A stretch of 64,000 nucleotides of DNA from Candidatus Omnitrophota bacterium (GTDB lineage: Bacteria; Omnitrophota; Gorgyraeia; Ghiorseimicrobiales; Ghiorseimicrobiaceae), in NCBI GenBank assembly GCA_030681595.1, contig JAUXSB010000061.1:69392-133391 (forward strand), in the 5' to 3' direction. The translations under genes were made by a program, and so were the position numbers. The first letter of the stretch is position 1. Each line of letters starts with the position of its first letter. Positions 22,876 through 46,091 of this stretch are shown here, piece by piece. The notes under the pieces are model-generated. The model did no database searches. It was given only the letters and a program-made list of their open reading frames with translations, and had not been told where the DNA came from.

Positions 22876-23008
22876 GCGGCTTTGGCAAATTGCGCGCCAA
22901 ACCACTGCCCTCTGGCTTGCGGCTTTGGCTATGTGGAAAGCCAAACCACTGCCCTCTGGCTTGCGGCTTTGGCTATGTGGAAAGCCAAACCACTGCCCTC
23001 TGGCTTGT
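22876..23008. repeat. tandem array (about three units of 44 bp) of a palindromic element, repeat family A
   Basis: GCGGCTTTGGCTATGTGGAAAGCCAAACCACTGCCCTCTGGCTT repeated head-to-tail; the first copy is degenerate. Core hairpin GGCTTT-N10-AAAGCC. Dispersed single copies are at 39154, 41202 and 46050. Confidence 0.85.
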
Positions 23009-23183
23009 AAATTAACTAACTCGTTTTTCCGCCGAAGGCGGATCCGCCTACGGCGGAAGACACCCCCGAGGTGGCCGGAAGGACTCCTCGGGGGTGGCCC
23101 GCCCGAACGACCACTGGTCGGGCGCGGCGAAGCTTGGTTATTCGGGAAAATCGCTGAACCGGTGTCAAAAATCGGTGACACCG

Positions 23184-23324
23184 ATTTGCTTTCCAAAAAA
23201 TACCGAGTTTTCAAAGATATCGGAAAATAGGCTTAAAGAAGTGCAAGATGAATTAAATGATCGTCCGCGTAAAACATTAGGTTTTTATACGCCTCATGAG
23301 AAATTTGCGGAACTGTTGCGTTAG
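23184..23324 (+). pseudogene. IS30-family transposase C-terminal fragment (remnant)
   Basis: FPKNTEFSKISENRLKEVQDELNDRPRKTLGFYTPHEKFAELL matches the conserved IS30 transposase C-terminus (FPKGTDLS..ELD.V.DELNNRPRKCLGFKTPAEVF). Only about 45 aa are present and no intact upstream ORF exists. Confidence 0.65.
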
Positions 23325-23610
23325 AAATTTGAATCTGCCCGACACTATTTACGCTATTGTAACAAGCGCAAGAGAAAAATCAATAATTAAGTATTGTGTC
23401 CCCTGATTTGCTGATTGTAACTCTCTATAAATCAATAAGTTAAGAATAAATATTTTTTACTAAAAGTAACTTATTTATCTACGCCTAGAATTCTCTAACG
23501 CAAAGTGACTTAAATTTTAATAATGCCTCTATTCTTCTTCAAAGTCAATTCCAAAAAATAAGGCCGGACAATTTAGTCCAGCCTTAAACCCATCTATGAA
23601 TTGAAGTTTT

Positions 23611-24303
23611 CTATACGGCTTTCTTTTTCTTAAAAAACAACCCTAACAGTCCTAATCCAAAAAGCGAAAAAGTTGCCGGTTCAGGAATAACTCCCTCTAC
23701 GCCCATAGAGAAATTTTTGGGGGCATATAACCCTCCTGGTAGCGGAGTAAAATATAAATCACCATAGCTCCACAAAGCATAATTGTTATTTACTGGCGCA
23801 CCAATTGCATTTAATCCATTCGTGCCGCTAACATAAGAATAACCGTATCCAAAACCAATAGGAGCAACAGTAAGCCAATATGTGTCTGGTTCCAAATAAA
23901 TACTTAAACCGGTAACTTCAATCGTATATTCGGGGGTCCAACTACCTACGCCTCGCCCAGTAGCTATCTGCGTTGCAGGACTAATTCCTCCCGCAATAAG
24001 CGTGCCGCCATTTCCTTCGGAGACACCACGACGGATTTCCCACATCGCCTGCTCAACTCCTGTAAAACTCATAAGGTCATTGGACCAAATTGTATTAACA
24101 AGCCATCCATCGTCATTAATAACTTGGAAATCTTCATATACATTAGATTGCGCTATTGATGTGTTAATTTCGTTTGCTAGCCCACCACCTAAATAACCCC
24201 TATAATCCCCATTATACCAAAGAACTGCAGAATAAGCGGAACCAATAAGAACAAAATTGAGTAAGAGAGAAATTAAAATCCCAAAAAGTGAATATTTTTT
24301 CAT
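23611..24303 (-). CDS. PEP-CTERM-anchored secreted protein (exosortase substrate)
   Basis: N-terminal signal peptide (MKKYSLFGILISLLLNFVLIGSAYS) and a C-terminal VIPEPATFSLFGLGLLGLFFKKKK PEP-CTERM sorting signal. The longer ORF reaching 24393 would add 30 aa before the signal peptide. Confidence 0.7.
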   Translation of the reverse strand: MKKYSLFGILISLLLNFVLIGSAYSAVLWYNGDYRGYLGGGLANEINTSIAQSNVYEDFQVINDDGWLVNTIWSNDLMSFTGVEQAMWEIRRGVSEGNGGTLIAGGISPATQIATGRGVGSWTPEYTIEVTGLSIYLEPDTYWLTVAPIGFGYGYSYVSGTNGLNAIGAPVNNNYALWSYGDLYFTPLPGGLYAPKNFSMGVEGVIPEPATFSLFGLGLLGLFFKKKKAV

Positions 24304-25161
24304 TATTTTTCCTTTCTTATAATTATTGCACATAAGCAATTTTCGTAAATAATGCAGATTCATAGTATCTTTTTCCTGCCTTCTCCCGGTCAATTTTAGT
24401 GTTTTTAAAAGTCTTGGTATTCCGGAGACAAAAAAAGTAACCCATTAATTGCGGTTATCCTTAAAGTTAGTTTATTTCGCCTGTCAGGATATTAATTCCG
24501 ATTGAGGCCATATTTAAACCCTAAACGGATATTTCTGTCAATATGACAGAACAAGACAAAGTAGGACATAGGGCGAATCCCATACCAAATGATATCAATA
24601 GCTATCTTTGACACCTGAAGATAATTGTGTTATGTTTAAATAGGTGATAAAAATGAAAACCATATCCCATATATTAGAAATAATTGAAAAGAGGGTGCGT
24701 AACCTTGCCAAAATGAAAAGCGCCTCTTGCGATATAGACCAAAGGCGCAAAAAAGCCCCTGCCGGCTGGAATAATGTAGAGGCATTACGCCGATTGCGTT
24801 CATAACGAATCTTTTTAAAAGATTATAGGCAACAACGTACGATACCCTCATATTAAAAGACTTAATCTTCGTAACATATCAAAGGTGGCTGAAAAATCTT
24901 CCCAAAAACCTCTTTCTTTAAAAACGATTACCAAAGAAATTCACCTCTTTCGCAAAGAAAAGAAGACGCAAATCAATAAAAAATAGGGCACTCAAAAACC
25001 ATAGTTTTTGACGCCCTAAATTGAATTTTCGCTGACCAACTGCGCTTTTAAATTGGGGCATAAAACTCCTTCGTGTTTCTGCCCCCGTGGCACGGCAATA
25101 ATAAGTATAGCATAAAATTCCCTTTTTCAAGGGGGGTAAAAAAATGCTAACGCGGATCCAA

Positions 25162-25785
25162 CTAATTTAAGTATGAACGAAAATTTGTTTTTCCCTTTAC
25201 CGCACTAATGAACTCGCTTACGGAAAATGGCTTATAAAGGTAATCCTCGATGCCCAACCGATTTGCCCTTTCTTCTGCCTGAGTATCCATATATCCGGTG
25301 ATAACAATCTCTTGTGGCGGGGTTTTTTGGGACTTATTATAAAACTCTCGGATTTTCTCTATGGCTTCAATGCCGTCCATCCCTGCCATCCTCACATCCG
25401 CTACAATCAGGTCAAAACTTTTGCTTTTTGCTTTTTCCAATGCCTCTTCTCCGCTTGCCGCCGAATCTACATTGTATCCGCAGGTATTGAGCAACTTAGC
25501 AATTGACCTCCGTACAAGTGTATCGTCATCAACCAGCAAAACATTATTGGTTTTCGATACGGCTTCCTTATCGGCCTGCGAAGCCAAGGGCTCATTTGGA
25601 ACAGAAACAACGGATTCAGCCTCTCCTTCGCTAATCCATTTATCCAAGCTTGATTTTCTGAAACGTAATTGTTTACCGATTTTTACCGAGGGGATTTCTT
25701 TTCGCTGAGAGAGCTTGTAAAGAGTGCTTTTGGGAATTTTTAAATACGCGGAAACTTCATTTAGAGTGAAAAACTTATCTTCCAT
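25162..25785 (-). CDS. excisionase-type HTH (HTH_17) fused to a C-terminal receiver (REC) domain
   Basis: 207 aa. N-terminus YLKIPKSTLYKLSQRKEIPSVKIGKQLRFRKSSLDKWI, paralogous to the 14381-14620 protein. C-terminal receiver motifs LLVDDD, DLIVADVRMAGMDG and YLYKPF. Confidence 0.75.
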   Translation of the reverse strand: MEDKFFTLNEVSAYLKIPKSTLYKLSQRKEIPSVKIGKQLRFRKSSLDKWISEGEAESVVSVPNEPLASQADKEAVSKTNNVLLVDDDTLVRRSIAKLLNTCGYNVDSAASGEEALEKAKSKSFDLIVADVRMAGMDGIEAIEKIREFYNKSQKTPPQEIVITGYMDTQAEERANRLGIEDYLYKPFSVSEFISAVKGKTNFRSYLN

Positions 25786-25814
25786 AATGGCTGTTTTTGT
25801 CTGTTTTTTACTGT

Positions 25815-25850
25815 TATTAATAATAACACGAATGCAAAGCTTGTCAAGTA
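25815..25850 (-). promoter_or_regulatory. candidate sigma70-type promoter for the HTH-REC gene
   Basis: On the minus strand: TTGACA, a 16-17 nt spacer, then TATTAT/ATTATT, in the 180-bp intergenic region upstream of 25785. Motif-only evidence. Confidence 0.25.
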
Positions 25851-25965
25851 AAATTTTTAGTAGCTTGCCAGAAACACAAACTTGACAAAGAACCTATAAA
25901 ATATCAAGGAATTGCGTCAAAATTCTGCCACAAATTCGGGAAAGCTTCAAAATATTTACCGCGAA

Positions 25966-26667
25966 TTAATCTTCTGCCTCTTCAACAAGCGCGAGGTCTG
26001 CGACCGGGGGTTCTCCTTTAATTATTTTGCCTGTTTTAAACCGGTATTTTAAAAATTTAATTGCGATAGGGAGGATTGAAACAAAAATGATTATAAGCGC
26101 GGCTAAAGAGAAATTATTTTTTACAAAAGGGATATTACCTAAAGAGAAACCTCCAAAGACAAAAATCGCCACCCACGCTATGCCGCCGCTAATATTATAA
26201 ACGATGAATTTAGCGTAATCCATCTTCCCTACGCCGGCTAAAAATGGGGCAAACGTACGCACAATAGGCACAAATCGCGCCAAGATAATTGTTTTAGCGC
26301 CATGTTTTTCATAAAATTTTTGCGTAAGATCCAGGTGCTCCTTTTTAAAAAAACGCGCGTTATTGCACTTAAAGATCTTATAGCCTATGATTTTACCCAT
26401 CGCGTAATTTAGGCTGTCGCCGAGTATGGCCGCTAAGCTTAAGGTAATAAATACCGCAAAAATATTCAGAGAACCGAGTGCCGAAATCGCCCCCACCATA
26501 AAAAGAAGCGAATCCCCGGGTAAAAAAGGCGTAACCACAAAGCCTGTCTCGGCAAAAATAATCAAGAAAAGAAATAGATACACCCACAAACCATAACTGT
26601 GTGTTATCGCCGTAAGGTACTGATCAAAATGCAGCAAAAAATCAAACGCGCTTTGTAAAAATTCCAT
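25966..26667 (-). CDS. DedA/SNARE-associated family membrane protein
   Basis: 233 aa. The VTPFLPGDSLLF motif and polytopic membrane profile are typical of DedA. Confidence 0.75.
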   Translation of the reverse strand: MEFLQSAFDFLLHFDQYLTAITHSYGLWVYLFLFLIIFAETGFVVTPFLPGDSLLFMVGAISALGSLNIFAVFITLSLAAILGDSLNYAMGKIIGYKIFKCNNARFFKKEHLDLTQKFYEKHGAKTIILARFVPIVRTFAPFLAGVGKMDYAKFIVYNISGGIAWVAIFVFGGFSLGNIPFVKNNFSLAALIIIFVSILPIAIKFLKYRFKTGKIIKGEPPVADLALVEEAED

Positions 26668-26668
26668 T

Positions 26669-28339
26669 TTATTTTTTCCGCGATAGCAATGCCCTTATCG
26701 CTTGGTAAATAAGAATAAAACTTAGAACCAAAAGGATTATACCACAAATTCCGGAGATTAAAGCATCGGGCGAAATTTTATTGCCTCCACCTGCGCATAC
26801 AAACCGCATAAAAGGCATGGTCAGGTTAAAGAGCGACCAGATAGTTACGCTCAACATAAACAACATCGGCAGTATGGTAAAAAACGGCCTTTTGCCACAC
26901 TTAATCAGCCAGAGAGAAAGCGCTAAAAGAATGAGGCTGGCAAGCAGTTGATTGCTGGTGCCAAAAATCGGCCAAGCAACCAAATAGGCTTTATCCTGTG
27001 TAACCGCCAGAAATATAAAAGGAATGGCAAGGCTGATTAAAGAAGCAAAAAAACCGCCTATTTTTGAGCGCCATCCGGTCAACTCCTGCAGGATATAACG
27101 CGCAAGGCGAGTGCAGACATCCAGCGTATCGTAAACAAATGTGGAAAAAGCAAGCAGGGCAAACGGAAAAGCAACACTATAGCCTATCTTAACTAGGCCC
27201 AAATACTTCGCGATACCATGGGCATAAATAAGATTTGGGTCATTTTTTAAAATCGCCGACTCTTTTGGCAGCATAATCACACAGGCTATCGCCAATATCG
27301 CCACAACCCCCTCCAAAAGCATTGACCCGTAACCTATCACTAAGCTGTCAGTTTCTCTCCTCACCTGCTTTGCGGTTGTACCGGATGAGACAATCCCATG
27401 AAAACCCGAACATGCCCCGCAGGCAATAGTGATAAACAAAATCGGAAAAATTGCTTTTTGATTTATACTGCTGCGAAAACCCTCAAGATTTAACGCCGGG
27501 TATTCTATTTTAAAGCCGCCGAATAAGGCGCCTGCCAAACCAACGCCAATTACTAAATACAAAAACCATCCTCCTAAGTACCCCCGCGGCTGAAGCAAGA
27601 GCCACAAGGGAATTAAGGAAGCGACAAAACAATAGAGCAATAAAATAATATGCCAGTCTTTAACTGAAATTCCGCCTATAGCATTAAGAATTTCATTGGG
27701 CAGATGCGGCCCAATCCAGACAATAAATAAAGTTAGCGGCAGAAATATCAAAGTGGCTAATCTTAAACTTAGCTTAAACTTATACAATAAAATACCCATA
27801 AACAGGGCTTCTATTAAATAGAAAAAGGATGACGCCGCGACCGCATTACCAAAAGAGACGCCTTCTACAACTGTCTTAAAAGTCTGCGCGGTGATATCGG
27901 TAAAGGCAATAATTACGTAAAGCAGTGTCAACCAGACAAAAATAAGGAATAGCGTTCGCGAAGGCGCCGGCATATATTCCTTGACAATCTCGCCTATTGA
28001 GCAGGCCTTATGCCGTATGGACGCAGCTAAGCTAAAAAAATCATGCGCTCCTCCGATAAAAATCGCCCCCAAAACAATCCAGAGGACAGCCGGCAGCCAT
28101 CCAAACCACAAACAAGCAAGTATCGGCCCTACTATCGGCCCGGCCGCGGCAATCGCGGAAAAATGCTGCCCCAAAAGAAGCGCAGGTCTAGCCGGAACAT
28201 AGTCTATACCGTCATTTATACTGCAGGCGGGAGTAGGACAGGTGTCGTCTAATTTTAACCTGTCGGCAAGAAACCTTCCATAAAGAAGATACGCCGATAG
28301 AAATATAACTATAACCGCGATAATTAATAGAGATAACAT
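26669..28339 (-). CDS. cstA: carbon starvation protein A (CstA family transporter)
   Basis: 556 aa polytopic membrane protein. The N-terminus (YVPARPALLLGQHFSAIAAAGPIVGPILA) is a canonical CstA motif. Confidence 0.8.
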   Translation of the reverse strand: MLSLLIIAVIVIFLSAYLLYGRFLADRLKLDDTCPTPACSINDGIDYVPARPALLLGQHFSAIAAAGPIVGPILACLWFGWLPAVLWIVLGAIFIGGAHDFFSLAASIRHKACSIGEIVKEYMPAPSRTLFLIFVWLTLLYVIIAFTDITAQTFKTVVEGVSFGNAVAASSFFYLIEALFMGILLYKFKLSLRLATLIFLPLTLFIVWIGPHLPNEILNAIGGISVKDWHIILLLYCFVASLIPLWLLLQPRGYLGGWFLYLVIGVGLAGALFGGFKIEYPALNLEGFRSSINQKAIFPILFITIACGACSGFHGIVSSGTTAKQVRRETDSLVIGYGSMLLEGVVAILAIACVIMLPKESAILKNDPNLIYAHGIAKYLGLVKIGYSVAFPFALLAFSTFVYDTLDVCTRLARYILQELTGWRSKIGGFFASLISLAIPFIFLAVTQDKAYLVAWPIFGTSNQLLASLILLALSLWLIKCGKRPFFTILPMLFMLSVTIWSLFNLTMPFMRFVCAGGGNKISPDALISGICGIILLVLSFILIYQAIRALLSRKK

Positions 28340-28383
28340 ACTATTAACCCGTCCTTAATAGATATTATAGAAAAAATAATTAC

Positions 28384-31300
28384 CTATGTATATTTTTTCT
28401 TAAACATCTTCTTTCTCAATTCCTCTACAAAGAATATCACGACCATAAATATAAATAATATCCCCCACTCCTGCCATCCGATGGCTATTGTTTGAAATAT
28501 CTTCTGGAAAAATGGCGTATATACCAATATACAAGTAAAGATAAGCTCAAAGGCAATACCCCAGAAAATAAGCTTGTTATTAAAAAATCCGATTTTAAAC
28601 ACGGAATGTTTTTCACTGCGGCAGGCAAAAATATTCGCTATTTGCATCACCACAATTCCAACAAAAACAACGGTTGTAGCTTTTAGATGCAAGGGATTTA
28701 CGAAAGTCGTATCATTAGGCTCTAATTGCACGCCCGGCCTCCAGCCGCCTCGATAAAGGACAAAATAATACGCGCTTATCACTGCTGCAGCATTTAAAAG
28801 GCCGAGTACTATATAGCCGCGCAACAAAACTATTTTATCTACCACACCTTTATTTTTCGGCCGCGGCGCAAGTTCCATAATCCCCGGCTCAGGTTTTTCT
28901 ACTCCCAAGGCAAGCGCGGGAAGAGTTTCCGTGCCCAAATCAATAGCTAGTATTTGCATAACTGTGATCGGCACAGGGATTTTAAAAAGGCAATAAAATA
29001 TATAAGGAATTGCTTCGGGGACAAGGTGCGCGAAAATATAGGTGATAAATTTCTTAATATTTTCAAATACCGCCCGGCCTTCTTCAATAGCTGAAACGAT
29101 GCTGGCAAAATTATCATCAATTAAGATCATCTCTGCCGCTTCTTTGGCCACGTCTGTGCCGCGCAGCCCCATGGCGATACCGATATCCGCCCGCTTAAGT
29201 GCCGGCGCATCATTTATCCCGTCGCCGGTTACGGCAACGATATTGCCCATTTCCTTAAAAATATTTACCACTCTTAATTTATCTTCTGGATTAACCCGGG
29301 CAAAAACAACTTCCTTTTTTAAAAGCTTATCTTTTAATTGTTCATCGCTAAAATTAGCAAAATCTAGCCCTGTAATAACTTCCGTGTCGCTAGATGTAAC
29401 AATCCCCACCTGCCTGGCAATAGATAAGGCGGTTATCTGATAGTCGCCGGTAATCATCACCACCCGGATGCCCGCCTTTTTACAAAGAGAAACCGCGTCT
29501 TTTACTTCCGGCCGCGGCGGATCATACATCGCGGTCGCGCCGATAAAAATAAGTCCATTCTCTATAGTTTTAGCGTCACAACCAGCCAAATCCTCTCTCT
29601 TTACATCGCGATAAGCAAAGCCTAACACGCGTAAGCCATCGCACGCAAAAGTATCAATCTGTGATAAGATTTGATCCTTTTTCTCAAAAGTTAAAGCAAC
29701 CACGCTTTCTCCTAAAACAATTTTACCGCAAAGCTCTAAAACCTCTTTTGGCGCGCCCTTAACAAAAGCATAAATACTATTATCCGGTATCCGGTGCAGA
29801 GAACTCATTCTTTTTCGTACTGATTCAAACGGAAAACGTTTTTGCAAGGGGCAACTTCTAAGCTCATCTTCATTGTTAAAACCTGCCTTTTGCGCTAATG
29901 TCAAAAGTGCGCCTTCCGTAGGGTCTCCGACAATACTCCAGTAATTCTTGTCCTGCGTAGGAAGAATAAGTTTAGCGGTATTACAGAGAACCGCGGCCCT
30001 CATCAAAAGATTAAGATTATCATTTTTTAATACCTCGCCTGAAAAAACCCTCCCCTCAAAACTAAATAATCCTTTCGGTTCATAACCGCTACCTGTAACT
30101 TCTATTATTTTGTCATTAATCCATATTTTCCTGACACTCATCTCATTAGTGGTAAGCGTGCCGGTTTTATCGGTGCAGATTACATTTGTACAGCCGAGCG
30201 TTTCCACCGAAGAAAGTTTCTTGATTAGGGCATGGCGCTTGACCATCCTTTGGACTGCCATAGCCAAAGCAAGCGTTAACGTCGGCATAAGCCCTTGAGG
30301 AACGTTTGCTATAATAATGCCCAAGGCAAACATTGCTGAAGCAACAAGCGTCATTTTAGTGAAAGTAAGGCCGATAAAAAAGAAAATACAGCCCATTAAA
30401 ACGGATATCAGGGCAATCATTTTACTTAAGCGATTTACCTCTTTTTGTAACGGGCTTAGTTCTTCTCTGATTGTCTGCGTTAAACGGGCAATCTTGCCGA
30501 TTTCAGTGCTCATTCCTGTGCCGATAACCACAGCTTTTCCTATACCGCTGGCAATACTTGTACCGGCAAAGATTAAGTTAGGCATCTCAAGCCATAAGAA
30601 ATCCTTGGTGTCTTTAAAACCTTCTGCCATCTTATGCGAAAGTTTAGACTCTCCGGAGAAAGCGCTGTTATTGACGCGTAATTCATTGGCCTCAACCAGC
30701 CTTGCGTCAGCAGGAGTATTGTCTCCTTCCTCAACGACAACAATATCTCCCGGCACAATATCATCGGTGGAAACCTTTGTTTCTTTTCCGTCTCTAACCA
30801 CACGCGCGTAAGAGGGAATTAATTTTTTTAGCGCGCTGATTGCTTTTTCCGCCTTAAATTCCTGCCAAAAGCTAAAGATAGCGTTAATAAAAATAACCAC
30901 GATACATGCCCACCCTGCTTCCGGCATCTTTGCCCAAAAAGAAAGCCCGCTTCCTGCCCACATAAGAATAGCCAAAAGATTGGTAAAGTGAGCTGCAAAG
31001 CGCACAATAAGCGGAGTTTTTCTTAATGCCCTCAATCTATTTGGCCCGTAATCTTTGAGGCGCCCTTGCACTTCTTTATCAGCGAGGCCGTTTTCGCTTG
31101 TATTGAGTTCTAGATAAATCGCTTCCTTGCTTAGGGCGGCAAAACCCTCTATTTCAAAATCGCCTTGTTTTAGAAGATAAAACAATTCATCGTTCGATGA
31201 AGCACTCCTGAGCTCACCGGCTACCAAAGGATCGCTAAAAAAAGCTGCTATTTTGGAAAGAAGTTTAAGGTGTATCTCGGGCTCTGAAAGCGGAGTTAAA

Positions 31301-31653
31301 AATAAAACTATAATGTATACGGGCTTCCCATCAAGCGAAGAAAAGTTAATCCCCCGTTTAGCAATGCCAACAAAAAAAACAGGTTCTTTTAAGTGTTCAA
31401 TACGGGCATGGGGAATAGCCACGCCATTGCCGATGCCGGTTGAATCCTTATTTTCCCTTTCTAAAAGGCTATTGAGAACAAAATGCTTATCTTTGATTTT
31501 TCTGTTTTTATAGAGGCAATCGACAATCTCAGAGATGGCTGTCTCTTTAGCCTGCGCCTTTAAGCTTACACTTAAAAGATTTTTATTTGTAAGTTCGGAT
31601 ATCTTCATAATAACTTTGTTCCTCTTAACAGGTAATACCAAACCATAAGTCAA
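28384..31653 (-). CDS. P-type cation-transporting ATPase with an N-terminal PTS EIIA type-2 (PtsN/EIIA-Ntr-like) domain
   Basis: 1089 aa. The N-terminal roughly 150 aa carry the EIIA-2 active-site motif GNGVAIPHARIEH. The rest is a P-type ATPase (CTDKTGTLTTNEM phosphorylation site, TGDGINDAPALKRADIGIAMG). Confidence 0.8.
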   Translation of the reverse strand: MTYGLVLPVKRNKVIMKISELTNKNLLSVSLKAQAKETAISEIVDCLYKNRKIKDKHFVLNSLLERENKDSTGIGNGVAIPHARIEHLKEPVFFVGIAKRGINFSSLDGKPVYIIVLFLTPLSEPEIHLKLLSKIAAFFSDPLVAGELRSASSNDELFYLLKQGDFEIEGFAALSKEAIYLELNTSENGLADKEVQGRLKDYGPNRLRALRKTPLIVRFAAHFTNLLAILMWAGSGLSFWAKMPEAGWACIVVIFINAIFSFWQEFKAEKAISALKKLIPSYARVVRDGKETKVSTDDIVPGDIVVVEEGDNTPADARLVEANELRVNNSAFSGESKLSHKMAEGFKDTKDFLWLEMPNLIFAGTSIASGIGKAVVIGTGMSTEIGKIARLTQTIREELSPLQKEVNRLSKMIALISVLMGCIFFFIGLTFTKMTLVASAMFALGIIIANVPQGLMPTLTLALAMAVQRMVKRHALIKKLSSVETLGCTNVICTDKTGTLTTNEMSVRKIWINDKIIEVTGSGYEPKGLFSFEGRVFSGEVLKNDNLNLLMRAAVLCNTAKLILPTQDKNYWSIVGDPTEGALLTLAQKAGFNNEDELRSCPLQKRFPFESVRKRMSSLHRIPDNSIYAFVKGAPKEVLELCGKIVLGESVVALTFEKKDQILSQIDTFACDGLRVLGFAYRDVKREDLAGCDAKTIENGLIFIGATAMYDPPRPEVKDAVSLCKKAGIRVVMITGDYQITALSIARQVGIVTSSDTEVITGLDFANFSDEQLKDKLLKKEVVFARVNPEDKLRVVNIFKEMGNIVAVTGDGINDAPALKRADIGIAMGLRGTDVAKEAAEMILIDDNFASIVSAIEEGRAVFENIKKFITYIFAHLVPEAIPYIFYCLFKIPVPITVMQILAIDLGTETLPALALGVEKPEPGIMELAPRPKNKGVVDKIVLLRGYIVLGLLNAAAVISAYYFVLYRGGWRPGVQLEPNDTTFVNPLHLKATTVVFVGIVVMQIANIFACRSEKHSVFKIGFFNNKLIFWGIAFELIFTCILVYTPFFQKIFQTIAIGWQEWGILFIFMVVIFFVEELRKKMFKKKYT

Positions 31654-31673
31654 AACACACCATAAGGCAGTTT

Positions 31674-31716
31674 TACCCCGCCTTCATTAGTTCTCTGGCG
31701 GGGTAAACTGTTTTTG
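31674..31716. terminator. candidate intrinsic terminator hairpin between hppA and the P-type ATPase gene
   Basis: 9-bp GC-rich stem TACCCCGCC...GGCGGGGTA followed by AAACTGTTTTTGG. The T-run is on the plus strand, so the orientation is ambiguous or bidirectional. Confidence 0.3.
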
Positions 31717-31737
31717 GTTAAATTAGAAATAAATTAG

Positions 31738-35136: not shown

Positions 35137-35458
35137 CAGATTATTCTCCTATTCTTAACCGTCTTTAATCCCAAATTTCTTGGCGTGGCGTAAAAAATTT
35201 GGGTTAAAAACTCGTTTGATTCCAAGAAAATCGCCAGCCATAGGCGATTTTCAGCCCCAGCCGTTTTGCTTTGCTACGCAAAGCAGGCGGAGATTAGGAA
35301 AGTATTTTTATACTTTCCTAATGCAGTAAAAAAGACAACCAGAGAACGGCTTCTCTGGCTTCCCGATGTTACTGAACTACGGCTGAAAAACCCTGTTTGC
35401 TAGAGGCCGCGATCTTTATTACGCCTCCTTTCCAGCAACAAATAGCCAAAATATTTCT

Positions 35459-37029: not shown

Positions 37030-38321
37030 TATTTTTCAACCCCGGCAAAGACATTTTTACCCGCTAATTTTTCCCTGAAAATTTTAGTTAATACCGGAAC
37101 AAATTTTATCGCGTCAGCAACAATACCATAGGTAGCAATATCAAAAATCGGCGCGTTTTTATCGGTGTTAATAGCCACGATGCAATCAGAACACTGCATA
37201 CCCATCCTGTGCTGTATTGAACCTGAAATCCCGCAGGCGATATAAAGGCGTGGGCGCACGGTTACTCCGGTTTGCCCGATTTGGTAAGAATGATCCACCC
37301 ATCCGGCATCTACTGCCGCCCGGGACGCCCCCACCGCGCCGCACAATACAAAAGCTAATTCCCGCAATACGGAAAAGTTTTCCGCCTTACCCATGCCTCT
37401 TCCGCCGGAAACAATAACATCCGCATAATGCAGGCCCGAATCACTGCAAACGGCATCAACGATAAACTCAATAACCTTAGTATCAATTTCTGCTTCCGGC
37501 AGTTTCAAATCATCAAAAATAATTTTCCCAACTCTTGCCGCGTCCTTTTTAGGCATAGGCATAACGTGCGGCCTGACAGTCGCCATCTGCGGCCTGACAT
37601 TTTCGCAGAAAATCGTCGCCATTACATTTCCGCCGAATGTGGGACGAGTCATTTCTAAAAATAAATTTTCCGTATTTATCTCTAAACCGGTACAGTCCGC
37701 GGTTAGCCCTGCCTTTAAACGCGTAGCCACCGCACCCGCTAAATCCCTGCCTAAGGTAGTAGCCCCGATGAGCAGAATTTCAGGTTTATATTTATTTACT
37801 ATCTGGACTAAACCTTCTGCATATGGCTTGGTGCGGTATTCTAATAAACTTTCGCTACTTGCCATATAAACAGAATCCGCGCCAAATTGCATTGCCTCGC
37901 GGGCAAAAACTTCTAACTCTTCTTTTTTTCCGCCTAAGATAACTGCTGATACCGCAGCACTTAGCTTAAGCGCAAGCCTCCTTGCCTCGCCTATCAATTC
38001 CCAAGAAACAGGATGCGGGGCATTATGTTCCTGTTCAATAAAAACCCATATACCTTTATACGCGGCTATACTACTTTTCTGCGCAGAAACTAACGGTTCA
38101 ATTTGTGGTTCTTTCTTTATCGCTTTTTCAATGATAATCGCGTTTGTCGGGCAAACCTTTACGCATTTGCCGCAACCAATGCATTTTTCTATGTCTAGCT
38201 CGGCTATGCCATCTTTCATAAATAACGCATCCGGCGGGCATACCGGAATACAATTACTGCAGCCAATGCATTTGTTTTTAATAATCTCTACTATAATCTT
38301 ACCTTTTGAATTCTTAGCCAT
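37029..38321 (-). CDS. fixB: electron transfer flavoprotein alpha subunit (EtfA/FixB) with an N-terminal 2x[4Fe-4S] ferredoxin domain
   Basis: 430 aa. N-terminal CIGCSNCIPVCP...CIGCGKCVKVCP, then the ETF-alpha FAD-binding domain (PRLYIACGISGSIQHRMGM). Confidence 0.8.
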   Translation of the reverse strand: MAKNSKGKIIVEIIKNKCIGCSNCIPVCPPDALFMKDGIAELDIEKCIGCGKCVKVCPTNAIIIEKAIKKEPQIEPLVSAQKSSIAAYKGIWVFIEQEHNAPHPVSWELIGEARRLALKLSAAVSAVILGGKKEELEVFAREAMQFGADSVYMASSESLLEYRTKPYAEGLVQIVNKYKPEILLIGATTLGRDLAGAVATRLKAGLTADCTGLEINTENLFLEMTRPTFGGNVMATIFCENVRPQMATVRPHVMPMPKKDAARVGKIIFDDLKLPEAEIDTKVIEFIVDAVCSDSGLHYADVIVSGGRGMGKAENFSVLRELAFVLCGAVGASRAAVDAGWVDHSYQIGQTGVTVRPRLYIACGISGSIQHRMGMQCSDCIVAINTDKNAPIFDIATYGIVADAIKFVPVLTKIFREKLAGKNVFAGVEK

Positions 38322-39123
38322 TCTTATTTATCAGTAATTTTTCTGTTAATGCCCGGGCTGTTTCTTCGGGATTACGTTCGTTAAAGGAAACCATTTCTCC
38401 TCTTTGACGCGGGGTAGGCGCAAATACACGCTTTACCGCGGTAGGAGAACCTTTCATCCCGCATAAATTTTCGTCAATCTCAATTAATTTTTTATCCCAA
38501 GCCTTTACCTGATAACGCGCCGCGCGAAATAGCTCGGGTAAAGGGGCGTATCTTAATTCATTAATGCCGTCTAAAACCGTTATTACCGCGGGAAGCCTGC
38601 TTTTCAGATACTGTTTTCCTTTTTCCGCGTGGCGATAGACAAAAATTTCTTTTCGCTCAAAGTCTATTTTTTCAATTTTTTCTATATAGGTAAGCTGCGA
38701 GAACCCCAGCCTTACCGCAATACCGGGGCCAACCTGCGCGGTATCGCCGTCAACGGTTTGCTTGCCGCAGATAACCAAATCAACCGGATTTTCTTTATTT
38801 AACGCTTTTATCCCGCACGCCAAACAATAGCTGGTGGCTAAAGTATCTGCCCCGGCAAAGGCCCTATCGCTTAAAAGTACTGCTTCGTCAATACCTAAAG
38901 AAACAGCCTTTTTCAAAGCGTCTTTTGCCTGAGGCGGCCCCATAGAAATAGCTGTTATTTTAGCGCCGAATTTATCCTTAATCCGCAAGGCTTCCTCAAT
39001 AGCAAAGATATCGTAAGGATTAATTATGGACGGCACCCCCTGACGCATAAGGGTATTAGTTACCGGGTCAATTTTGACCTGTGTGCTATCCGGGACTTGT
39101 TTTATACAGACAACGATATGCAT
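38314..39123 (-). CDS. fixA: electron transfer flavoprotein beta subunit (EtfB/FixA)
   Basis: 269 aa. MHIVVCIKQVPD is the ETF-beta signature N-terminus. Confidence 0.85.
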   Translation of the reverse strand: MHIVVCIKQVPDSTQVKIDPVTNTLMRQGVPSIINPYDIFAIEEALRIKDKFGAKITAISMGPPQAKDALKKAVSLGIDEAVLLSDRAFAGADTLATSYCLACGIKALNKENPVDLVICGKQTVDGDTAQVGPGIAVRLGFSQLTYIEKIEKIDFERKEIFVYRHAEKGKQYLKSRLPAVITVLDGINELRYAPLPELFRAARYQVKAWDKKLIEIDENLCGMKGSPTAVKRVFAPTPRQRGEMVSFNERNPEETARALTEKLLINKNG

Positions 39124-39153
39124 TTTTTAATAGTGCTGTCCTGCTATTCTTAT

Positions 39154-39197
39154 GGCTTTGGCTAAGCGGAAAGCCAAACCACTGCCTTACCGGCTTA
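39154..39197. repeat. repeat family A, single intergenic copy
   Basis: GGCTTTGGCTAAGCGGAAAGCCAAACCACTGCCTTACCGGCTT between etfB and atpC. It matches the 44-bp unit of the 22876-23008 array. Confidence 0.8.
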
Positions 39198-39262
39198 TAC
39201 CTTTGTTATTATTTTCACACACTTTGGTAAATTTTTAGGTATATCATATTATATTATGCTTG

Positions 39263-40934
<1,672 letters not shown>

Positions 40935-41831
40935 TTAACCTTTCAAAAGTTCCGCAGCACTTGATACTTCAATTATTTCCTTGGTAATTGAAGCCTGCCG
41001 CGCCTTATTCCTTAATAATGTAAGGCTATCAATCATGGTTTCTGCGTTATCCGTAGCCGCCTTCATCGCGATCATCCTTGCTGAGTGCTCCGAAGTAAAG
41101 GCGTTTAAAAGTATCGCGCGCATTTTGGCAGAGATGTATCTTGGGATTAAGTCTTCCAAAATCCTCTCTCTTGAAGGCTCCAAGATATATTCTATCTCTT
41201 CGGCTTTGGCTATATTGAAAGCCAAACCACTGCCCCTCTGGCTTGCGGCTTTGGCGCGTTCAATATTTAAAAATTTCTCTAACGTCGGCTTATATTTTAA
41301 GGCGGAGATAAAATGCGTATAAATAATATAAACTTCATCGGCCTCTTTTGACAAAAACAGCCGTGTAAGAGTATTTGCGATTTCATCAGAAATGTTTTTA
41401 GAAAATACCCCCTGTAAACCGACATACGAATGTAAAATATGAAAATCGCGTTTCTTAAAATAACTAAAGGCTTTCTTACCGACAGTAATAAGTTTTATTT
41501 TTTCTTTTCCTTGGCCGCGGATAAATTGCTCGCAAAGACGGATAATATTATCGTTATAGGTACTAGATAGCCCGGTATCGGAGGTAATCACACAAAGCGC
41601 AGTATTGTTTTTGGGCCTTTCCTCTAAAAACGGGTGTACCGCGACATCTATCCCGCAAAGAAGGTTTTTAAACATCGCTTCTAATTTTAGAAAATATGCG
41701 TTGCCCGCGCGTAAAACCGCCTCACTTTTTTTAAGTTTGGCACCCGAGACCATCTCCATTGCCCGCGTAATCTTCTTGGTGTTTTCTACGCTTCTAATCC
41801 TTCTTTTTATAGTCCTTAGTGATTGGAGCAT
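40935..41831 (-). CDS. atpG: F1 ATP synthase gamma subunit (carries an in-frame repeat-family-A insertion)
   Basis: 298 aa. N-terminus IKRRIRSVENTKKITRAMEMVSGAKL and C-terminus ITKEIIEVSSAAELLKG are canonical gamma. Confidence 0.85.
   Translation of the reverse strand: MLQSLRTIKRRIRSVENTKKITRAMEMVSGAKLKKSEAVLRAGNAYFLKLEAMFKNLLCGIDVAVHPFLEERPKNNTALCVITSDTGLSSTYNDNIIRLCEQFIRGQGKEKIKLITVGKKAFSYFKKRDFHILHSYVGLQGVFSKNISDEIANTLTRLFLSKEADEVYIIYTHFISALKYKPTLEKFLNIERAKAASQRGSGLAFNIAKAEEIEYILEPSRERILEDLIPRYISAKMRAILLNAFTSEHSARMIAMKAATDNAETMIDSLTLLRNKARQASITKEIIEVSSAAELLKG
41202..41257. repeat. repeat family A copy inserted in-frame inside atpG
   Basis: GGCTTTGGCTATATTGAAAGCCAAACCACTGCCCCTCTGGCTTGCGGCTTTGGCGCG. 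On the atpG strand it translates to ERAKAASQRGSGLAFNIAKAEE. Confidence 0.85.
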
Positions 41832-41834
41832 ATT

Positions 41835-43343
41835 TTAAATTTGAAATGTTTTCTTAAACGCGGATAGCGCCTGATTTAGCTTTTCTTTCATCACGTCTTT
41901 TAATTCCTTATGTGTTTCTATTTCATGCTCTATGTCGGCGTAATGCTCTTCGATAAATTTATAAAATTCAGCCTCAAATTTTTTTACCACTGCTAAAGGC
42001 AAATCATCTAAGTAGCCGTTTGTACCGGCATAGATGATTATTACCTGTTTTGCTAAAGAATACGGCTCATACTGGCCCTGTTTTAAAACTTCAACCATGC
42101 GCTCTCCGCGCACAAGCTGCGCTTGAGTAGCCTTGTCTAATTCTGAACCAAACTGAGTAAAGGCGGCTAATTCGCGGTACTGGGCTAAATCAAGCCTAAG
42201 CCTGAGTGCTACCTGCTTCATGGCTTTTTCCTGAGCTTTTCCTCCGACGCGCGAAACCGATAAACCAACATTAATTGCCGGCCGTACTCCCGCGTAAAAA
42301 AGATCATTCTCAAGATAAATCTGTCCGTCAGTAATCGAGATAACGTTTGTGGGGATATAGCTAGTCATATCTCCTGCCTGCGTTTCGATAATCGGCAATG
42401 CTGTCAAAGAACCTGAGCCTAATTTATCATTTAATTTTGCCGCGCGCTCAAGTAGCCTTGAATGTAAATAAAAAATATCTCCCGGATACGCTTCTCTTCC
42501 CGGCGGCCTACGAAGCAATAGAGATAATTGCCTATAGGCCTGCGCGTGTTTGGACAAATCGTCATAGATCACCAGGGCATGTTTGCCGGAATACATAAAC
42601 TCCTCTGCCAAAGCGCACCCGGCATAGGCCGCCAAATACTGTAATGCCGCAGGCTCATCAGGGGGGGCGGCGACAACGGTAGTGTATTCCATCGCCCCGT
42701 ATTTTTCTAAAGTTTTAACCACCGCCACAATATTGGATAGTTTTTGGCCGATAGCGACATAGACGCAGTAAACATCGCTATTTTTCTGATTAATTATCGT
42801 ATCAACGACAATCGCGGTTTTTCCGGTCTGCCGGTCTCCGATAATTAGCTCGCGCTGGCCGCGGCCGATAGGAATCATGGAATCAATTGCTTTAATCCCG
42901 GTTTGCATCGGCTCTTTCACGGGTTGGCGCTCAACCACGTTGGGGGCGCGCGCCTCAAGAAACCTGAATTTTTCCGTAACTACCGGGCCCTTACCGTCAA
43001 TAGGCCTGCCTAAAGCATCCACTACCCGGCCAACAAGAGCATTTCCCACCGGAACCTGCGCGATTTTTCCTGTCCTTTTTACGATATCGCCATCTTTAAT
43101 TTCTTTGTCTGAACCAAAAATGACAATACCGACATTGTCCTCTTCCAGATTAAAAACCATGCCTAAAATATTCCCGGGAAACTCAACCAGTTCCCCTGCC
43201 ATTACGTCATCAAGCCCGTGCACGCGCGCTATGCCGTCGCCCACATAGAGGACAGTCCCTACGGATTCAACTTTTAATTTTGCCTTATAGTTTAGGAGTT
43301 CTTTTTTTATAATTGAAGCGACTTCTTCCGGCCTTATACTCAT
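41835..43343 (-). CDS. atpA: F1 ATP synthase alpha subunit
   Basis: 502 aa. Walker A GDRQTGKT. Confidence 0.9.
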
Positions 43344-43345
43344 TT

Positions 43346-43894
43346 TTACCCCACCTTAATTTTTAATAGGTTTTCCTTTAAGTCTAAAATCTTTTTTTTC
43401 ACTGACGCATCAATAACGACATTGCCGACGATCGCCTGTATTCCGCCGATTAAATCCGGAGCGATACTAGCTTCTAATTCCATTTTTTTTTGCAGCCTTT
43501 GTTCTAATTTTTCTTTTACTTGGTCTAATTTCTTTTCATCTGGAAGAAAGGCTGTCTTTAGCAACACCTTTTCAATACCTATTTCACGCTGATAAATAAC
43601 CTTAGCATAATCAGCGATTTGCGCAATCTGGTTTATGCGGCCTTTTTTTATGATAAACTCCAGAAAATTTAGGCTATTTGACGAAAAACCTTTCTTGAAA
43701 ACACGCTCAATAAAAGCTTCTTTATCGGAAAATTCAATTTCAGGATTCTTAAAGAATTCTTCTAATTCGGGGCTTTCTCCAATAATCAGTTTTAATCTTT
43801 CCAATTCCTCAAAGGCCTCTTTTGCGCCGATATTCGCGCGGCAAGAATCCAAAAACCCTTGCGCATATCTTCTGGATGCCGCCTTGTCTTTCAC
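43346..43894 (-). CDS. atpH: F1 ATP synthase delta subunit
   Basis: 182 aa, all-alpha. Position between atpF and atpA; C-terminal [19 protein letters not shown] is the delta/OSCP signature. Confidence 0.75.
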
Positions 43895-43942
43895 CCCGCT
43901 CTTCCTCCCTTAATTACCCAGCCCTTTTAGGAAGGGCGGGGT

Positions 43943-44440
43943 TCATTTTACCTCATCCAACTCATCTAAAAATTCGGAGATTAACTTTTTGTCTTTTTCG
44001 CTGGTAAGCTTTTCTTTAATAATATACTCTGTTGCGCCTATAGTCAGATCAATAACTTTATCCTTCAATACTTCTTTAGCTTTAGAAAGCTCTAGTTCAA
44101 TATTCTCTTCGGCCTTTTTCAGGATTATCCGCGAGTCAGCTGCAGCCTTTTCCCTTATCTCCTGCGCAATGTGCCGGGCCTGGCTAACCGCCTCCTGAAT
44201 TTTTACCTGCGCGAGCTCGTCTATTCTTTCTAACTTTTCATTATAATCAGACTTCAGTTTAGAAATTTCTTCTTTTGCTTCTTCAATTTTTTGAAATTCC
44301 GAAGCTATTTTTTCGCGGCGTGCGTCAAGCAATAAAAGTATCTTCTTCCAGGCAAAAGCCCTTAAGATAAAAAAGAGAATTAGGAAGCTGATAACCTGCG
44401 CTACTATTTCGTTTGTGCTTAAAAGCCTTAAAAGTTCCAT
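43943..44440 (-). CDS. atpF: Fo ATP synthase subunit b
   Basis: 165 aa. N-terminal TM helix, long charged coiled coil, and operon position. Confidence 0.75.
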   Translation of the reverse strand: MELLRLLSTNEIVAQVISFLILFFILRAFAWKKILLLLDARREKIASEFQKIEEAKEEISKLKSDYNEKLERIDELAQVKIQEAVSQARHIAQEIREKAAADSRIILKKAEENIELELSKAKEVLKDKVIDLTIGATEYIIKEKLTSEKDKKLISEFLDELDEVK

Positions 44441-44464
44441 TTTGGATTTGTCGTAAAATCTAGG

Positions 44465-44698
44465 TTATTGTATTTTTCCCATAAGCTGAAACGATACCAC
44501 CAAAGAATAAATGGTTAATGCCTCGATTAAAGCGCATCCGGCAATCATGTTTACTAATATTTTGGTTGATGCCTCAGGCTGACGGGCTGTGGCATCCATC
44601 GCCGCTGAAACCGCCTTACCTAACGCAAGGGCTGAACCCACCGCCGCAATTGCCAAACCCATAGGCACAAAAATCGATAATGCTACTCTGTAATCCAT
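44465..44698 (-). CDS. atpE: Fo ATP synthase subunit c
   Basis: 77 aa. Two TM helices around a polar loop (ARQPEAS) with the conserved carboxylate (IEAL) in helix 2. Confidence 0.85.
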   Translation of the reverse strand: MDYRVALSIFVPMGLAIAAVGSALALGKAVSAAMDATARQPEASTKILVNMIAGCALIEALTIYSLVVSFQLMGKIQ

Positions 44699-44902
44699 CT
44701 TTTTCTCCTCTCAATGACGACACAAGTTATGTCGCTTTTAGCTCCATAACTTGTATGTCGGAATTGATACCGAAAGCTGCAAGAAAAATTTGTCCCAAAT
44801 TTTTCCCCTAGAAATCGCGTTGCGATTTCAGGGACTTTAGTCCTGGAAATTCTTTAGAATTTCTCAGGGCAAGCGCTTAGCTTTCGGTACATCCACCTCA
44901 AA

Positions 44903-45694
44903 TTAACCCTTTTCCCCTTGATGCTCCTTATACGGCAACACTAGCGCGAAATATATCGTGCTTAAAAGAGCGAATACTGTTGCCTGAATAAAAGAAGATA
45001 ACACCGTCAGAAGCATGCTAAAAATAAATAACGGGACACCCGCTATGCCGAAACTGGCGGCTACCGATAATAGGGCATCCTCCGCCCAGACATTGCTCCT
45101 TAAACGTAGAGCCAAACTCAAAGGCCTGACTAATTCTGAAACCAAGTGAATCGCGAATATTAAAACCGGAATAAACACCGTAAAAGCAATTATACCCCGG
45201 GGTTTACCCATCATATGGTCAATGTATCCGCGTACGCCATTTTCTTTTATGGCTGTATACTGCACATAAATAAAAACACAGATTGCCAAAGCGACAGTAG
45301 TTGACAGGCTTGAAGTTGAAGACTTCATTAGCGGGATAAGCCCGAAAAGATTCATTGTCAGGATATATAAAAAAAGTGTCCCGATAAAAGGCGTAAATTT
45401 TCTTCCGTGATGGCCCAAAATGCCGCAGACAAAATCGTCTATTGCCGAAACCAAGATTTCAAGAAAGCCCTGCAACCTCCCCGGGACAAGGCCAGCCTTC
45501 TTCGTTGCCCGATACGCCACAAAAGATAAAAGTGCTGCGATAATTACCGAAAAAATCACATTCTCCCAGATATGCAGGTACTCAGCAAAACGGCTGCCAT
45601 GAAATTTCTCTGCCAAGATACTGATTAAATTCGGCAGCTCCGCATGCTGTTGAGTAGAATGCGAAATAACTACTGAATGCGCTTCTTGTGACAT
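44903..45694 (-). CDS. atpB: Fo ATP synthase subunit a
   Basis: 263 aa, polytopic. The conserved Arg region (LSLALRLRSNVWAEDALL) is typical of subunit a. Confidence 0.8.
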   Translation of the reverse strand: MSQEAHSVVISHSTQQHAELPNLISILAEKFHGSRFAEYLHIWENVIFSVIIAALLSFVAYRATKKAGLVPGRLQGFLEILVSAIDDFVCGILGHHGRKFTPFIGTLFLYILTMNLFGLIPLMKSSTSSLSTTVALAICVFIYVQYTAIKENGVRGYIDHMMGKPRGIIAFTVFIPVLIFAIHLVSELVRPLSLALRLRSNVWAEDALLSVAASFGIAGVPLFIFSMLLTVLSSFIQATVFALLSTIYFALVLPYKEHQGEKG

Positions 45695-45695
45695 A

Positions 45696-45941
45696 TTAAC
45701 TCTTATCTATTTTGATAGCAAGCCTAATTAGGCGGATTGTTTCTACGGCGCTTGAAACAAATCCCATTGTGATACAAATTACGGATACGGCTTGGCCTAA
45801 ATTAAATTTATTTCTTAAATACTCACCGAGAAAATTTCCTGCCAAAGGGCCGGCCACAAGGACAAAAGGCAGAAATAATAAAACCCCGGCAATCTTAGTT
45901 TGTTTATAAAATTCTTTTTTCTTATCTACTGACATACGCAT
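45696..45941 (-). CDS. small membrane protein at the head of the atp operon (AtpZ/AtpI-like)
   Basis: 81 aa, two TM helices, immediately upstream of atpB. Confidence 0.5.
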   Translation of the reverse strand: MRMSVDKKKEFYKQTKIAGVLLFLPFVLVAGPLAGNFLGEYLRNKFNLGQAVSVICITMGFVSSAVETIRLIRLAIKIDKS

Positions 45942-46049
45942 AAATAATAGAAGTTTTGGAAGCCAGTATTTTGGCCGTATGCAAGGCGTAACGACGAAGA
46001 TGTAGTCTTTTGTACTACTTCAAGGAGGAGCAACGCGGCAGACGGGCAT

Positions 46050-46091
46050 GGCTTTGGCTATATTGAAAGCCAAACCACTGCCTTCTCGCTT
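46050..46091. repeat. repeat family A, single intergenic copy
   Basis: GGCTTTGGCTATATTGAAAGCCAAACCACTGCCTTCTCGCTTG between nuoN and the atp operon. Confidence 0.8.

Follow-up and report, generated by a model that had tools for sequence, protein, structure and literature searches.

The window analyzed here is a 64-kb stretch of DNA from a Candidatus Omnitrophota metagenome-assembled genome (MAG), and it contains a short hairpin-forming repeat, hereafter repeat family A, which lies both in spacers and in frame within a core gene. Synteny with a sister contig (L136), whose ATP synthase gamma subunit is 83% identical to that of the window, gives the gene order nuoJKLMN, a small AtpZ-like gene, atpBEFHAGDC, etfB/fixA, fixB, fixC, fixX, exbBD, and H+-PPase. 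In this operon part of the window, all genes run along the minus strand, and the GC skew of the plus strand is negative throughout the 64 kb. Six units of family A occur at four loci, every one on the plus strand: a head-to-tail array of three units, one unit in the atpC-etfB spacer, one inside atpG, and one in the nuoN-atpZ spacer (Table 1). The original prediction, which was made from the letters alone, had every copy that it named in the right place but counted five copies. The spacer unit at 39154 comes after atpC, the end of the atp operon, and the unit at 46050 comes after nuoN.

The chance expectation for such units in the window is none. The pattern GGCTTTGGC-N6-GAAAGCCAAACCACTGCC has five exact matches on the plus strand of the window versus zero in 100 dinucleotide-preserving shuffles, and a search with the 14-nucleotide (nt) core GCCAAACCACTGCC also recovers the loop-divergent first unit of the array. 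According to Tandem Repeats Finder, the period at 22896-23007 is 44 nt, with 100% matches. A covariance model trained on 86 copies returns exactly the six units of the window, with E <= 4e-8; the next match, at E = 0.008, is the opposite strand of the unit at 46048-46093, and nothing else in the 64 kb is convincing.

The gamma subunit of the window is 100% identical to an NCBI protein of a Candidatus Omnitrophota MAG. It matches Pfam PF00231 (ATP-synt) with 284.7 bits, and its orthologues are 283-285 amino acids (aa) long. Around the insert, the protein reads ...ERAKAASQRGSGLAFNIAKAEE..., in a longer stretch ...NIERAKAASQRGSGLAFNIAKAEEIEY.... In an alignment of 16 gamma sequences, the two closest orthologues (L138 and L136; 283 aa, 83-84% identical) lack exactly AKAASQRGSGLAFNI. 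The insert comprises 15 aa, or 45 nt, and occupies residues 196-210 or, by an equally valid placement, 193-207. On the gene strand, the site in the window reads GAACGC-GCCAAAGCC-[GCAAGCCAGAGGGGCAGTGGTTTGGCTTTCAATATA-GCCAAAGCC]-GAAGAG, and the empty site reads GAACGC-GCCAAAGCC-GAAGAG in L138 and GAACGC-GCGCAAGCC-GAAGAG in L136. Comparison of the filled and empty sites therefore shows that the insertion is 45 nt, one repeat period. The 9-mer GCCAAAGCC (gene strand; GGCTTTGGC on the plus strand), which makes up the end of the unit, pre-exists at the empty site of the closest orthologue. The atpG unit is of the 44-nt type plus one C, with CCCC where other copies have CCC or shorter, and this extra C keeps the reading frame. 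The original prediction had correctly described an in-frame copy that leaves the 298-aa open reading frame (ORF) intact and had suggested checking whether orthologues lack it, as the two closest do; its peptide length of 18 aa has to be corrected to 15 aa.

Mapping the insert onto the gamma structure, as the original prediction had suggested, places it in a predicted coil loop of low confidence. The AlphaFold2 model built from the 16-sequence alignment (mean predicted local distance difference test score, pLDDT, 74; predicted template modeling score, pTM, 0.67) has the usual long N- and C-terminal helices plus a Rossmann-like domain. Residues 193-218 are modeled as coil and form the only run of at least three residues with pLDDT < 50. 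They follow the last beta strand (179-188), precede the C-terminal helix (221-297), and enclose the whole insert. Upon alignment to the solved gamma subunits of Bacillus PS3 and Caldalkalibacillus (C. thermarum), the insert falls in a gap. The alignment to chloroplast gamma breaks near query residue 188-190, which is presumably about where the regulatory insertion of chloroplast and cyanobacterial gamma begins. The host loop varies in length among orthologues. A different Omnitrophota gamma clade (301 aa; P0020, P0022, and P0027) carries an unrelated insert of ~16 aa in the same loop (alignment columns ~207-222), from which it follows that the site is permissive.

Table 1. Features of the window discussed in the text, and one gene on contig L094. 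REP, repetitive extragenic palindromic; RAYT, REP-associated tyrosine transposase.
Feature	Position	Strand	Remarks
Head-to-tail three-unit array	22877-23008	+	intergenic
Array unit 1	22878-22920	+	43 nt, divergent loop AAATTGCGC
Array units 2 and 3	22921-22964, 22965-23008	+	44 nt each, identical
HTH_3 gene flanking the array	22320-22805	-	
PEP-CTERM gene flanking the array	23611-24393	-	
Single unit, atpC-etfB spacer	39154-39198	+	CTTAT on each side (ATAAG on the gene strand)
atpG (ATP synthase F1 gamma)	40935-41831	-	298 aa, intact
Unit inside atpG	41202-41246	+	45 nt; antisense to the gene, translated ASQRGSGLAFNIAKA
GGCTTTGGC, 9-nt direct repeat of the first 9 nt of the atpG unit	41247-41255	+	
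Gamma peptide stretch across the insert			ASQRGSGLAFNIAK
Single unit, nuoN-atpZ spacer	46050-46093	+	44 nt
Spacer segment of ~318 bp, 32-nt inverted repeats at both ends	45928-45959 + 46214-46245		no strand
Y1_Tnp / RAYT-like ORF	L094 3896-4582		Pfam Y1_Tnp 59.3 bits, cut-off 23

Beyond atpG, repeat family A shows presence/absence polymorphism among close relatives. The atpC-etfB unit is present in the window and in L138 and is missing in L136, with a length difference of ~45 nt. The nuoN-atpZ spacer (~310 bp) is likewise missing in L136, where both genes abut. The covariance model finds zero copies in 20.8 kb of L136 and one copy in L138. In leuS, L094 has two units (84 nt, 28 aa), and the 78%-identical orthologue in L144 has none. 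One ferredoxin-domain loop of FixB/ETF-alpha holds at least two full units plus partial units in L018, L054, and L116, and no units are found in that loop in the proteins of the window and L136. These comparisons show that new insertions comprise exactly one or two periods and occupy sites where close relatives have none. The insertion polymorphism at atpG, atpC-etfB, and nuoN-atpZ supports the proposal of an active or recently active miniature mobile element with which the analysis began. At one orthologous site, loop subfamilies of 42, 43, or 44 nt are present in different contigs (L019, L036, L063, and L076 versus L070 versus L057 and L123), which suggests either replacement or gene conversion between subfamilies or a repeatedly used hot spot.

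The unit at 46050-46093 does lie in the atp-nuo spacer, as originally described, but within a larger insertion. The ~318-bp segment at 45928-46245 that contains it is missing in L136, and the inverted repeats that bound this segment are 87.5% identical. The segment resembles a separate insertion of the type of a miniature inverted-repeat transposable element (MITE), with inverted-repeat ends, enclosing a family A unit. The 33-nt core of the enclosed unit is identical to the core of the atpG unit. The left arm of the larger insertion has a relative in L126 (5714-5828; 75% over 116 nt).

The family is found well outside the window. A scan of reference genomes, which used a 9-10-nt loop gap and misses the dominant 42-nt form, detected true copies in six Omnitrophota MAGs, some as tandem arrays, and in one 2.2-kb contig binned as Firestonebacteria. 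A metagenome scan located the element in at least 120 contig stretches, and the family-wide counts given below rest on the matches listed from these stretches. No matches were found in a scan of viral contigs. Independent assemblies from NCBI, ENA, JGI, and Logan all contain the element. Chance coding look-alikes matched the pattern in L022, L078, L085, L111, and L132 (the G2-box of a histidine kinase and other native genes); these false positives lack the conserved tail of the element. The searchable literature yielded no prior description of the sequence, of the peptide, or of such Omnitrophota repeats. A peptide search with three tandem units gave only six matches and was uninformative, probably because the peptide is short and biased in composition.

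The dominant unit is 42 nt (GGCTTTGGCTATCGGAAGCCAAACCACTGCCCTCTGGCTTGT), and the lineage of the window carries a 44-nt loop variant. Units range from 41 to 45 nt, and the subfamilies differ chiefly in the loop. In each unit, an 11-bp stem, GTGG-C-TTTGGCT / AGCCAAA-CCAC, contains a single bulged C and closes a loop that varies between 6 and 10 nt; after this hairpin comes a conserved tail of 16 nt, TGCCCTCTGGCTTGT. Both strands fold into a hairpin, with modest single-sequence z-scores of -1.4 to -4.2, and the family encodes nothing of its own. The ends of the unit, GGCTTTG... and ...GGCTTGT, are direct repeats; the palindrome is internal, and terminal inverted repeats are absent. Arrays are direct and head to tail, with a period of 42 or 44 nt and no spacer between units, and partial units are common, as are sub-repeats of 12 nt (SQSHSQSH).

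The hairpin is maintained by compensatory changes. Over 121 distinct copies, 94.8% of cells are paired. On an alignment fitted to the model, 6 of the 11 pairs have changed on both sides (45 cells), a value that none of 500 shuffles reaches and that is far lower in slid controls. Variant stems can also be read directly in neighboring degenerate copies, as TGCGGCT/AGCCGCA, TTGGGCT/AGCCCAA, and TTTGGCC/GGCCAAA. When such compensatory stem changes occur in coding copies, they alter the peptide (e.g., GAASDSRS), which indicates that the constraint acts on the nucleic-acid hairpin rather than on the protein.

Copies inside genes are sorted by length and frame. Among 152 pattern matches, 70 are 42-nt units inside ORFs of at least 150 aa, antisense to the gene and in a single frame, termed A2, that reads KPEGSGLASDSQSH, or (H)KPEGSGLAS[D/Y/N/F]SQSH. 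With coding defined as lying inside an ORF of at least 150 aa, the non-redundant covariance-model set of 136 hits contains 81 coding versus 11 non-coding units of 42 nt and four versus four of 45 nt. The coding to non-coding ratio is thus 85:15 for units of 42 or 45 nt, whereas it is 5:29 for units of 41, 43, or 44 nt (Fisher p = 1.4e-13). The few units within ORFs whose length is not a multiple of three sit at ORF ends, such as the N-terminal edge in L058 and the C-terminal tail in L073. Frame A2 is used in 43 of 54 non-redundant hosts, and the rest are spread over A0, A1, S0, S1, and S2. Its peptide is rich in Gly, Ser, and Pro and is the most hydrophilic of the five stop-free frames, with a grand average of hydropathy of -1.26 versus -0.5 to +1.3. 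Orientation relative to genes is biased in spacers as well, at 27:13. The chance that a random 42-mer is stop-free in five of six frames is ~0.1 by rough arithmetic, and this property was not counted as evidence of adaptation.

The original prediction had called attention to an element that occupies spacers and also, in frame, a core gene. This reading was essentially right but understated the scale: in other Omnitrophota contigs, members of more than 25 unrelated protein families contain the element in frame. A Pfam scan of 30 hosts gave matches for 27. The hosts include a UvrD-type helicase, AcrB, LeuRS, a Cdc48-type AAA ATPase, CheA, LepA, BamA, and sulfite reductase; MurJ, ETF-alpha/FixB, an amine oxidase, glycogen synthase, HisRS, a hybrid-cluster protein, and GH130; and PFOR, glutamate synthase (GltB), PilM, glutamate 5-kinase (ProB), pyruvate kinase, and KARI. 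The UvrD-like ORF of L027 alone holds seven in-frame units, in both orientations and three frames.

The junctions were examined in 111 non-tandem, non-redundant copies. The base at -1 is T in 94% of them, and the consensus of the flank from -5 to -1, CTT(G/A)T, is identical to the last five bases of the unit itself. Downstream, about half of the copies have G at +1 and +2, and T is found at +4 and +5, which mirrors how the unit begins; this GG.TT echo occurs at about twice the background frequency. In three filled/empty pairs, the junction repeats are 9 nt (atpG), 5 nt (atpC-etfB), and ~5 nt (leuS, imperfect and ambiguous). Two mechanisms fit these junctions: insertion on single-stranded DNA 3' of TTRT, a logic like that of IS200/IS605, or homology-guided copy-paste at CTTGT|GGCTTTGGC. 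Since TTRT is the element's own right end, insertion 3' of it would generate head-to-tail arrays automatically. The atpG case fits better with homology-guided copy-paste, whereas the T at -1 in 94% of copies fits better with TTRT insertion.

To look for a mobilizing enzyme, ~0.9 Mb of element-bearing and related contigs was searched by tblastn using IS608-like, IS200-like, and YafM-like probes. Two matches were obtained, both to the RAYT-like probe. The ORF in L094 (Table 1) has as its best NCBIfam match the REP-associated tyrosine transposase, at 76.4 bits, just below the cut-off of 80. Relatives of this Y1 gene are common in Omnitrophota and other phyla. It lies directly downstream of leuS in two of three genomic contexts (L139-L141; L144) and beside a deaminase gene and rpsP in L142/L143, and its genomic behavior is typical of RAYTs. 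In eight of eight loci, the gene is bracketed by inverted TAGGGACAGACAC, a motif absent from the window and from the other loci. No family A unit adjoins it, and L142-L145 contain none. REPs flank their RAYT, which serves as the criterion for REP-RAYT pairs (PMC3116915), and by this measure the Y1 gene is not established as the partner of family A. The gene was rejected as mobilizer given its own inverted motif and the lack of adjacent family A copies, and the IS200/IS605 TnpA or REP-type mobilizer considered in the original prediction is not supported by these contigs, although such a gene may lie elsewhere in the genomes. Three independent assemblies end directly after the Y1 gene.

Our studies lead us to propose that repeat family A is likely a non-autonomous, selfish, hairpin-dependent mobile repeat of Omnitrophota that is filtered by selection for frame and for a harmless peptide. 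The hairpin would be recognized, or would act, on single-stranded DNA, and the unit would be pasted beside (C)TTRT, a short motif that matches the unit's 3' end exactly, which would explain the head-to-tail arrays. Alternatively, pasting could rely on 5-9 nt of homology to the unit's own junction. The agent may be a trans-acting HUH/Y1-type enzyme or replication template switching, and selection would afterwards remove frameshifting or harmful insertions. Several points weigh against this proposal. Movement is not seen directly, only as presence/absence between species, and the atpG insertion is known from one assembly; an exact-protein look-up of the window gamma returned no independent contig. 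The filled/empty pairs show no target-site duplication of a fixed length, and the atpG junction, with CTTC as its 5' flank and 9 nt of homology, does not follow the TTRT rule. The tblastn search of ~0.9 Mb identified no IS200/IS605 TnpA and no mobilizing enzyme, and the RAYT-like Y1 gene of relatives was rejected. The covariation was counted on an alignment already fitted to the model, and the antisense and A2 bias could partly reflect insertion bias instead of selection.

Spread without any dedicated enzyme is possible, although we hold it to be the less likely explanation. The hairpin would stall replication, and the nascent strand would switch template via 5-9 nt of microhomology at CTTGT|GGCTTTGGC, copy one period, and return, with array slippage in addition. 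The 9-mer GCCAAAGCC already present at the empty atpG site is consistent with such a route, as is the atpG insert itself, which is one array period including the array-type junction GCAAG. On both sides of single copies, the sequence retains a decaying, wrap-around similarity to the neighboring period (CTTRT upstream; GG.TT downstream, at ~2x background), the number of units varies at one site (the FixB loop), and no transposase was found by tblastn in the ~0.9 Mb. The frequent partial units and 12-nt sub-repeats also agree with template switching, but partial flanking units are equally explained as decayed arrays. However, the T at -1 in 94% of copies and the near-constant start phase look more like a defined cleavage or joining point, and spontaneous template switching would have to account for dispersal into over 50 unrelated genes, where many sites offer only 4-5 nt of homology, which is demanding. 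It is quite improbable that the element instead benefits the cell, whether as a hairpin signal in mRNA or DNA (for stability, pausing, protein binding, or uptake and recognition) or as a ready-made flexible linker. The compensatory changes that conserve the hairpin would agree with a useful element, as would the location of the window's intergenic copies, which share one strand and lie where the atp and nuo operons have their 3' ends, and the 27:13 orientation bias in spacers; the REP elements of E. coli have secondary roles of this kind. However, close relatives do not share the sites, the host genes have unrelated functions, and a single gene can contain copies in both orientations and several frames. 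In addition, the hairpin has no U-tract after it and belongs to no Rfam family, and most orthologues lack the insertions, which are therefore not needed for protein function. A conserved protein motif, such as a GSGLA loop, or an assembly or binning artifact is scarcely credible. The chance coding look-alikes speak for a motif, but these lack the conserved tail, and the same nucleotides occur in spacers and in five reading frames, are missing from orthologues that are 83-84% identical, and are found in the independent NCBI, ENA, JGI, and Logan assemblies.

Several other features accompany the units in the window. Two overlapping ORFs, 22837-23214 (-) and 22874-23230 (+), of 118-125 aa, run across the array. 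A Pfam scan of the two gave no family match, and they are likely spurious gene calls that exist because the repeat is stop-free. A CRISPR array was ruled out, as spacers are absent and the period equals the unit, and so was a coding tandem repeat at 22.9 kb, as 44 is not divisible by 3 and neither overlapping ORF has a Pfam match. An intrinsic terminator was ruled out by the absence of a U-tract after the hairpin on the transcribed strand. An Rfam scan of the window returned two tRNAs only, plus chance-level matches at the array, and no family for the repeat. A GC-rich palindrome (TCCGCCGAAGGCGGA x2) lies directly beside the array at 23027-23058, with a related sequence in L144 (5414-5457). 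At 55967-56231, a 120-nt tandem repeat is present in 2.2 copies with 95% identity; its last partial copy overlaps tRNA-Asp (56212-56290), and it may be a duplicated 3' part of the tRNA or an integration scar. A second small-repeat family is represented by a 53-nt direct repeat with TGACTGG heptamers at 57656-57708 and 63376-63428, 5.7 kb apart, and by 25-nt tandem units with a hairpin-like core, CCTGTGCCCG..AGGGTA, at 58694-58796.

The distinctive features of repeat family A are its 42-nt unit, the sorting of lengths by frame between genes and spacers, the in-frame arrays, and the phylum-wide spread. To our knowledge, in-frame selfish DNA in core genes has had essentially one textbook case, the Rickettsia palindromic elements (RPEs). 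That case has been tied to an obligate intracellular lifestyle and weak selection. The same outcome is now found in free-living or episymbiotic Omnitrophota of groundwater and sediment, with an element three times smaller. We put forward, only tentatively, that such ultra-small (42-nt) mobile DNA forms a previously unrecognized class, adapted phylum-wide to life in coding sequence, with a length divisible by three and five of six frames open, and moving by its hairpin plus junction homology with no or an unknown transposase. In that case, it would act generally as a source of new surface loops in essential proteins. It is testable whether lineage-specific loops, as in ATP synthase gamma, LeuRS, and ferredoxin domains, start as mobile-element insertions. 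Because the element can be found by a simple pattern and is present in many independent assemblies, public metagenome time series could test both its movement and the tolerance of essential proteins for random 14-residue loops. In practical terms, the repeat inflates protein lengths, creates spurious spacer ORFs (e.g., at 22.8-23.2 kb), may break assemblies, and may serve as a strain marker.

Repeat family A shares features with several known systems. Like REP elements and REPINs (Bertels & Rainey 2011, PMC3116915; Nunvar et al. 2010), it is a very short, non-coding, imperfect hairpin with a conserved stem, present in hundreds of dispersed copies and in clusters or tandems, with no terminal inverted repeats and apparently no classical target duplication, and a single-stranded-DNA logic is plausible for both. 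However, REPs are extragenic by definition, whereas 81 of the 92 family A units of 42 nt are inside ORFs of at least 150 aa. REPs usually form inverted doublets with a 5' GTAG and lie next to their own RAYT gene; the arrays of family A are direct, its stem foot is GTGG, and the only RAYT-like gene seen is flanked by TAGGGACAGACAC. With the IS200/IS605 'peel-and-paste' elements and their transposase-less derivatives, the palindrome-associated transposable elements (PATEs), family A shares a sub-terminal hairpin and the lack of terminal inverted repeats. A short conserved motif, (C)TTRT, directly 5' of the unit resembles a target or cleavage tetranucleotide, and the orientation appears strand-biased, all four loci of the window being on the strand with uniformly negative GC skew. 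Those elements measure 100 bp or more and end in two different hairpins, whereas family A has one hairpin in 42 nt; no tnpA was found by tblastn in the ~0.9 Mb, and the atpG junction does not obey the motif rule. The mycobacterial interspersed repetitive unit-variable number tandem repeats (MIRU-VNTR) are reportedly head-to-tail units of 40-100 bp, variable in number, that occur at dispersed loci between operon genes in mycobacteria only. Family A resembles them in its head-to-tail arrays of variable number, in having one orientation to transcription, and in open reading through the units. Unlike MIRU-VNTR, which lie between operon genes and are not defined by a hairpin, it is found inside conserved domains.

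The small dispersed repeats of cyanobacteria are said to be similarly tiny. MITEs are also known from within genes, including ERIC, BOX, Coxiella QMITE, and Anabaena MITEs (review PMC10969869). Like these MITEs and the cyanobacterial repeats, family A is small and non-autonomous, and they too sometimes give rise to ORFs with in-frame fusions or insertions; in sequence, family A is related to none of them. MITEs have terminal inverted repeats and target duplications, and an intragenic position is exceptional for them, whereas it is the rule for family A, where 85 of 100 units with a length of 42 or 45 nt are intragenic. Because terminal inverted repeats are absent, family A is not a classical MITE. 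The closest parallel is provided by the RPEs, palindromic repeats inserted in frame in many unrelated genes (Ogata et al. 2000, via review PMC10969869), and the original description of the element as unusual outside Rickettsiales is a fair one in light of the same review. Both are dispersed hairpin repeats that lie in spacers and in frame in unrelated housekeeping ORFs, which are left intact, and both add a translated peptide. Presence or absence of copies differs between related species for both. RPEs, however, are ~100-150 bp, fall into ten families, and occur in Rickettsia only, whereas family A units are 41-45 nt and occur in Omnitrophota; family A also appears unrelated to RPEs in sequence. 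Unlike RPEs, it also forms head-to-tail arrays, even within genes, and has a very strong preference for a single frame. Functionally, repeat family A is closest to the RPEs, yet by length and host, and presumably by sequence, it is no RPE.

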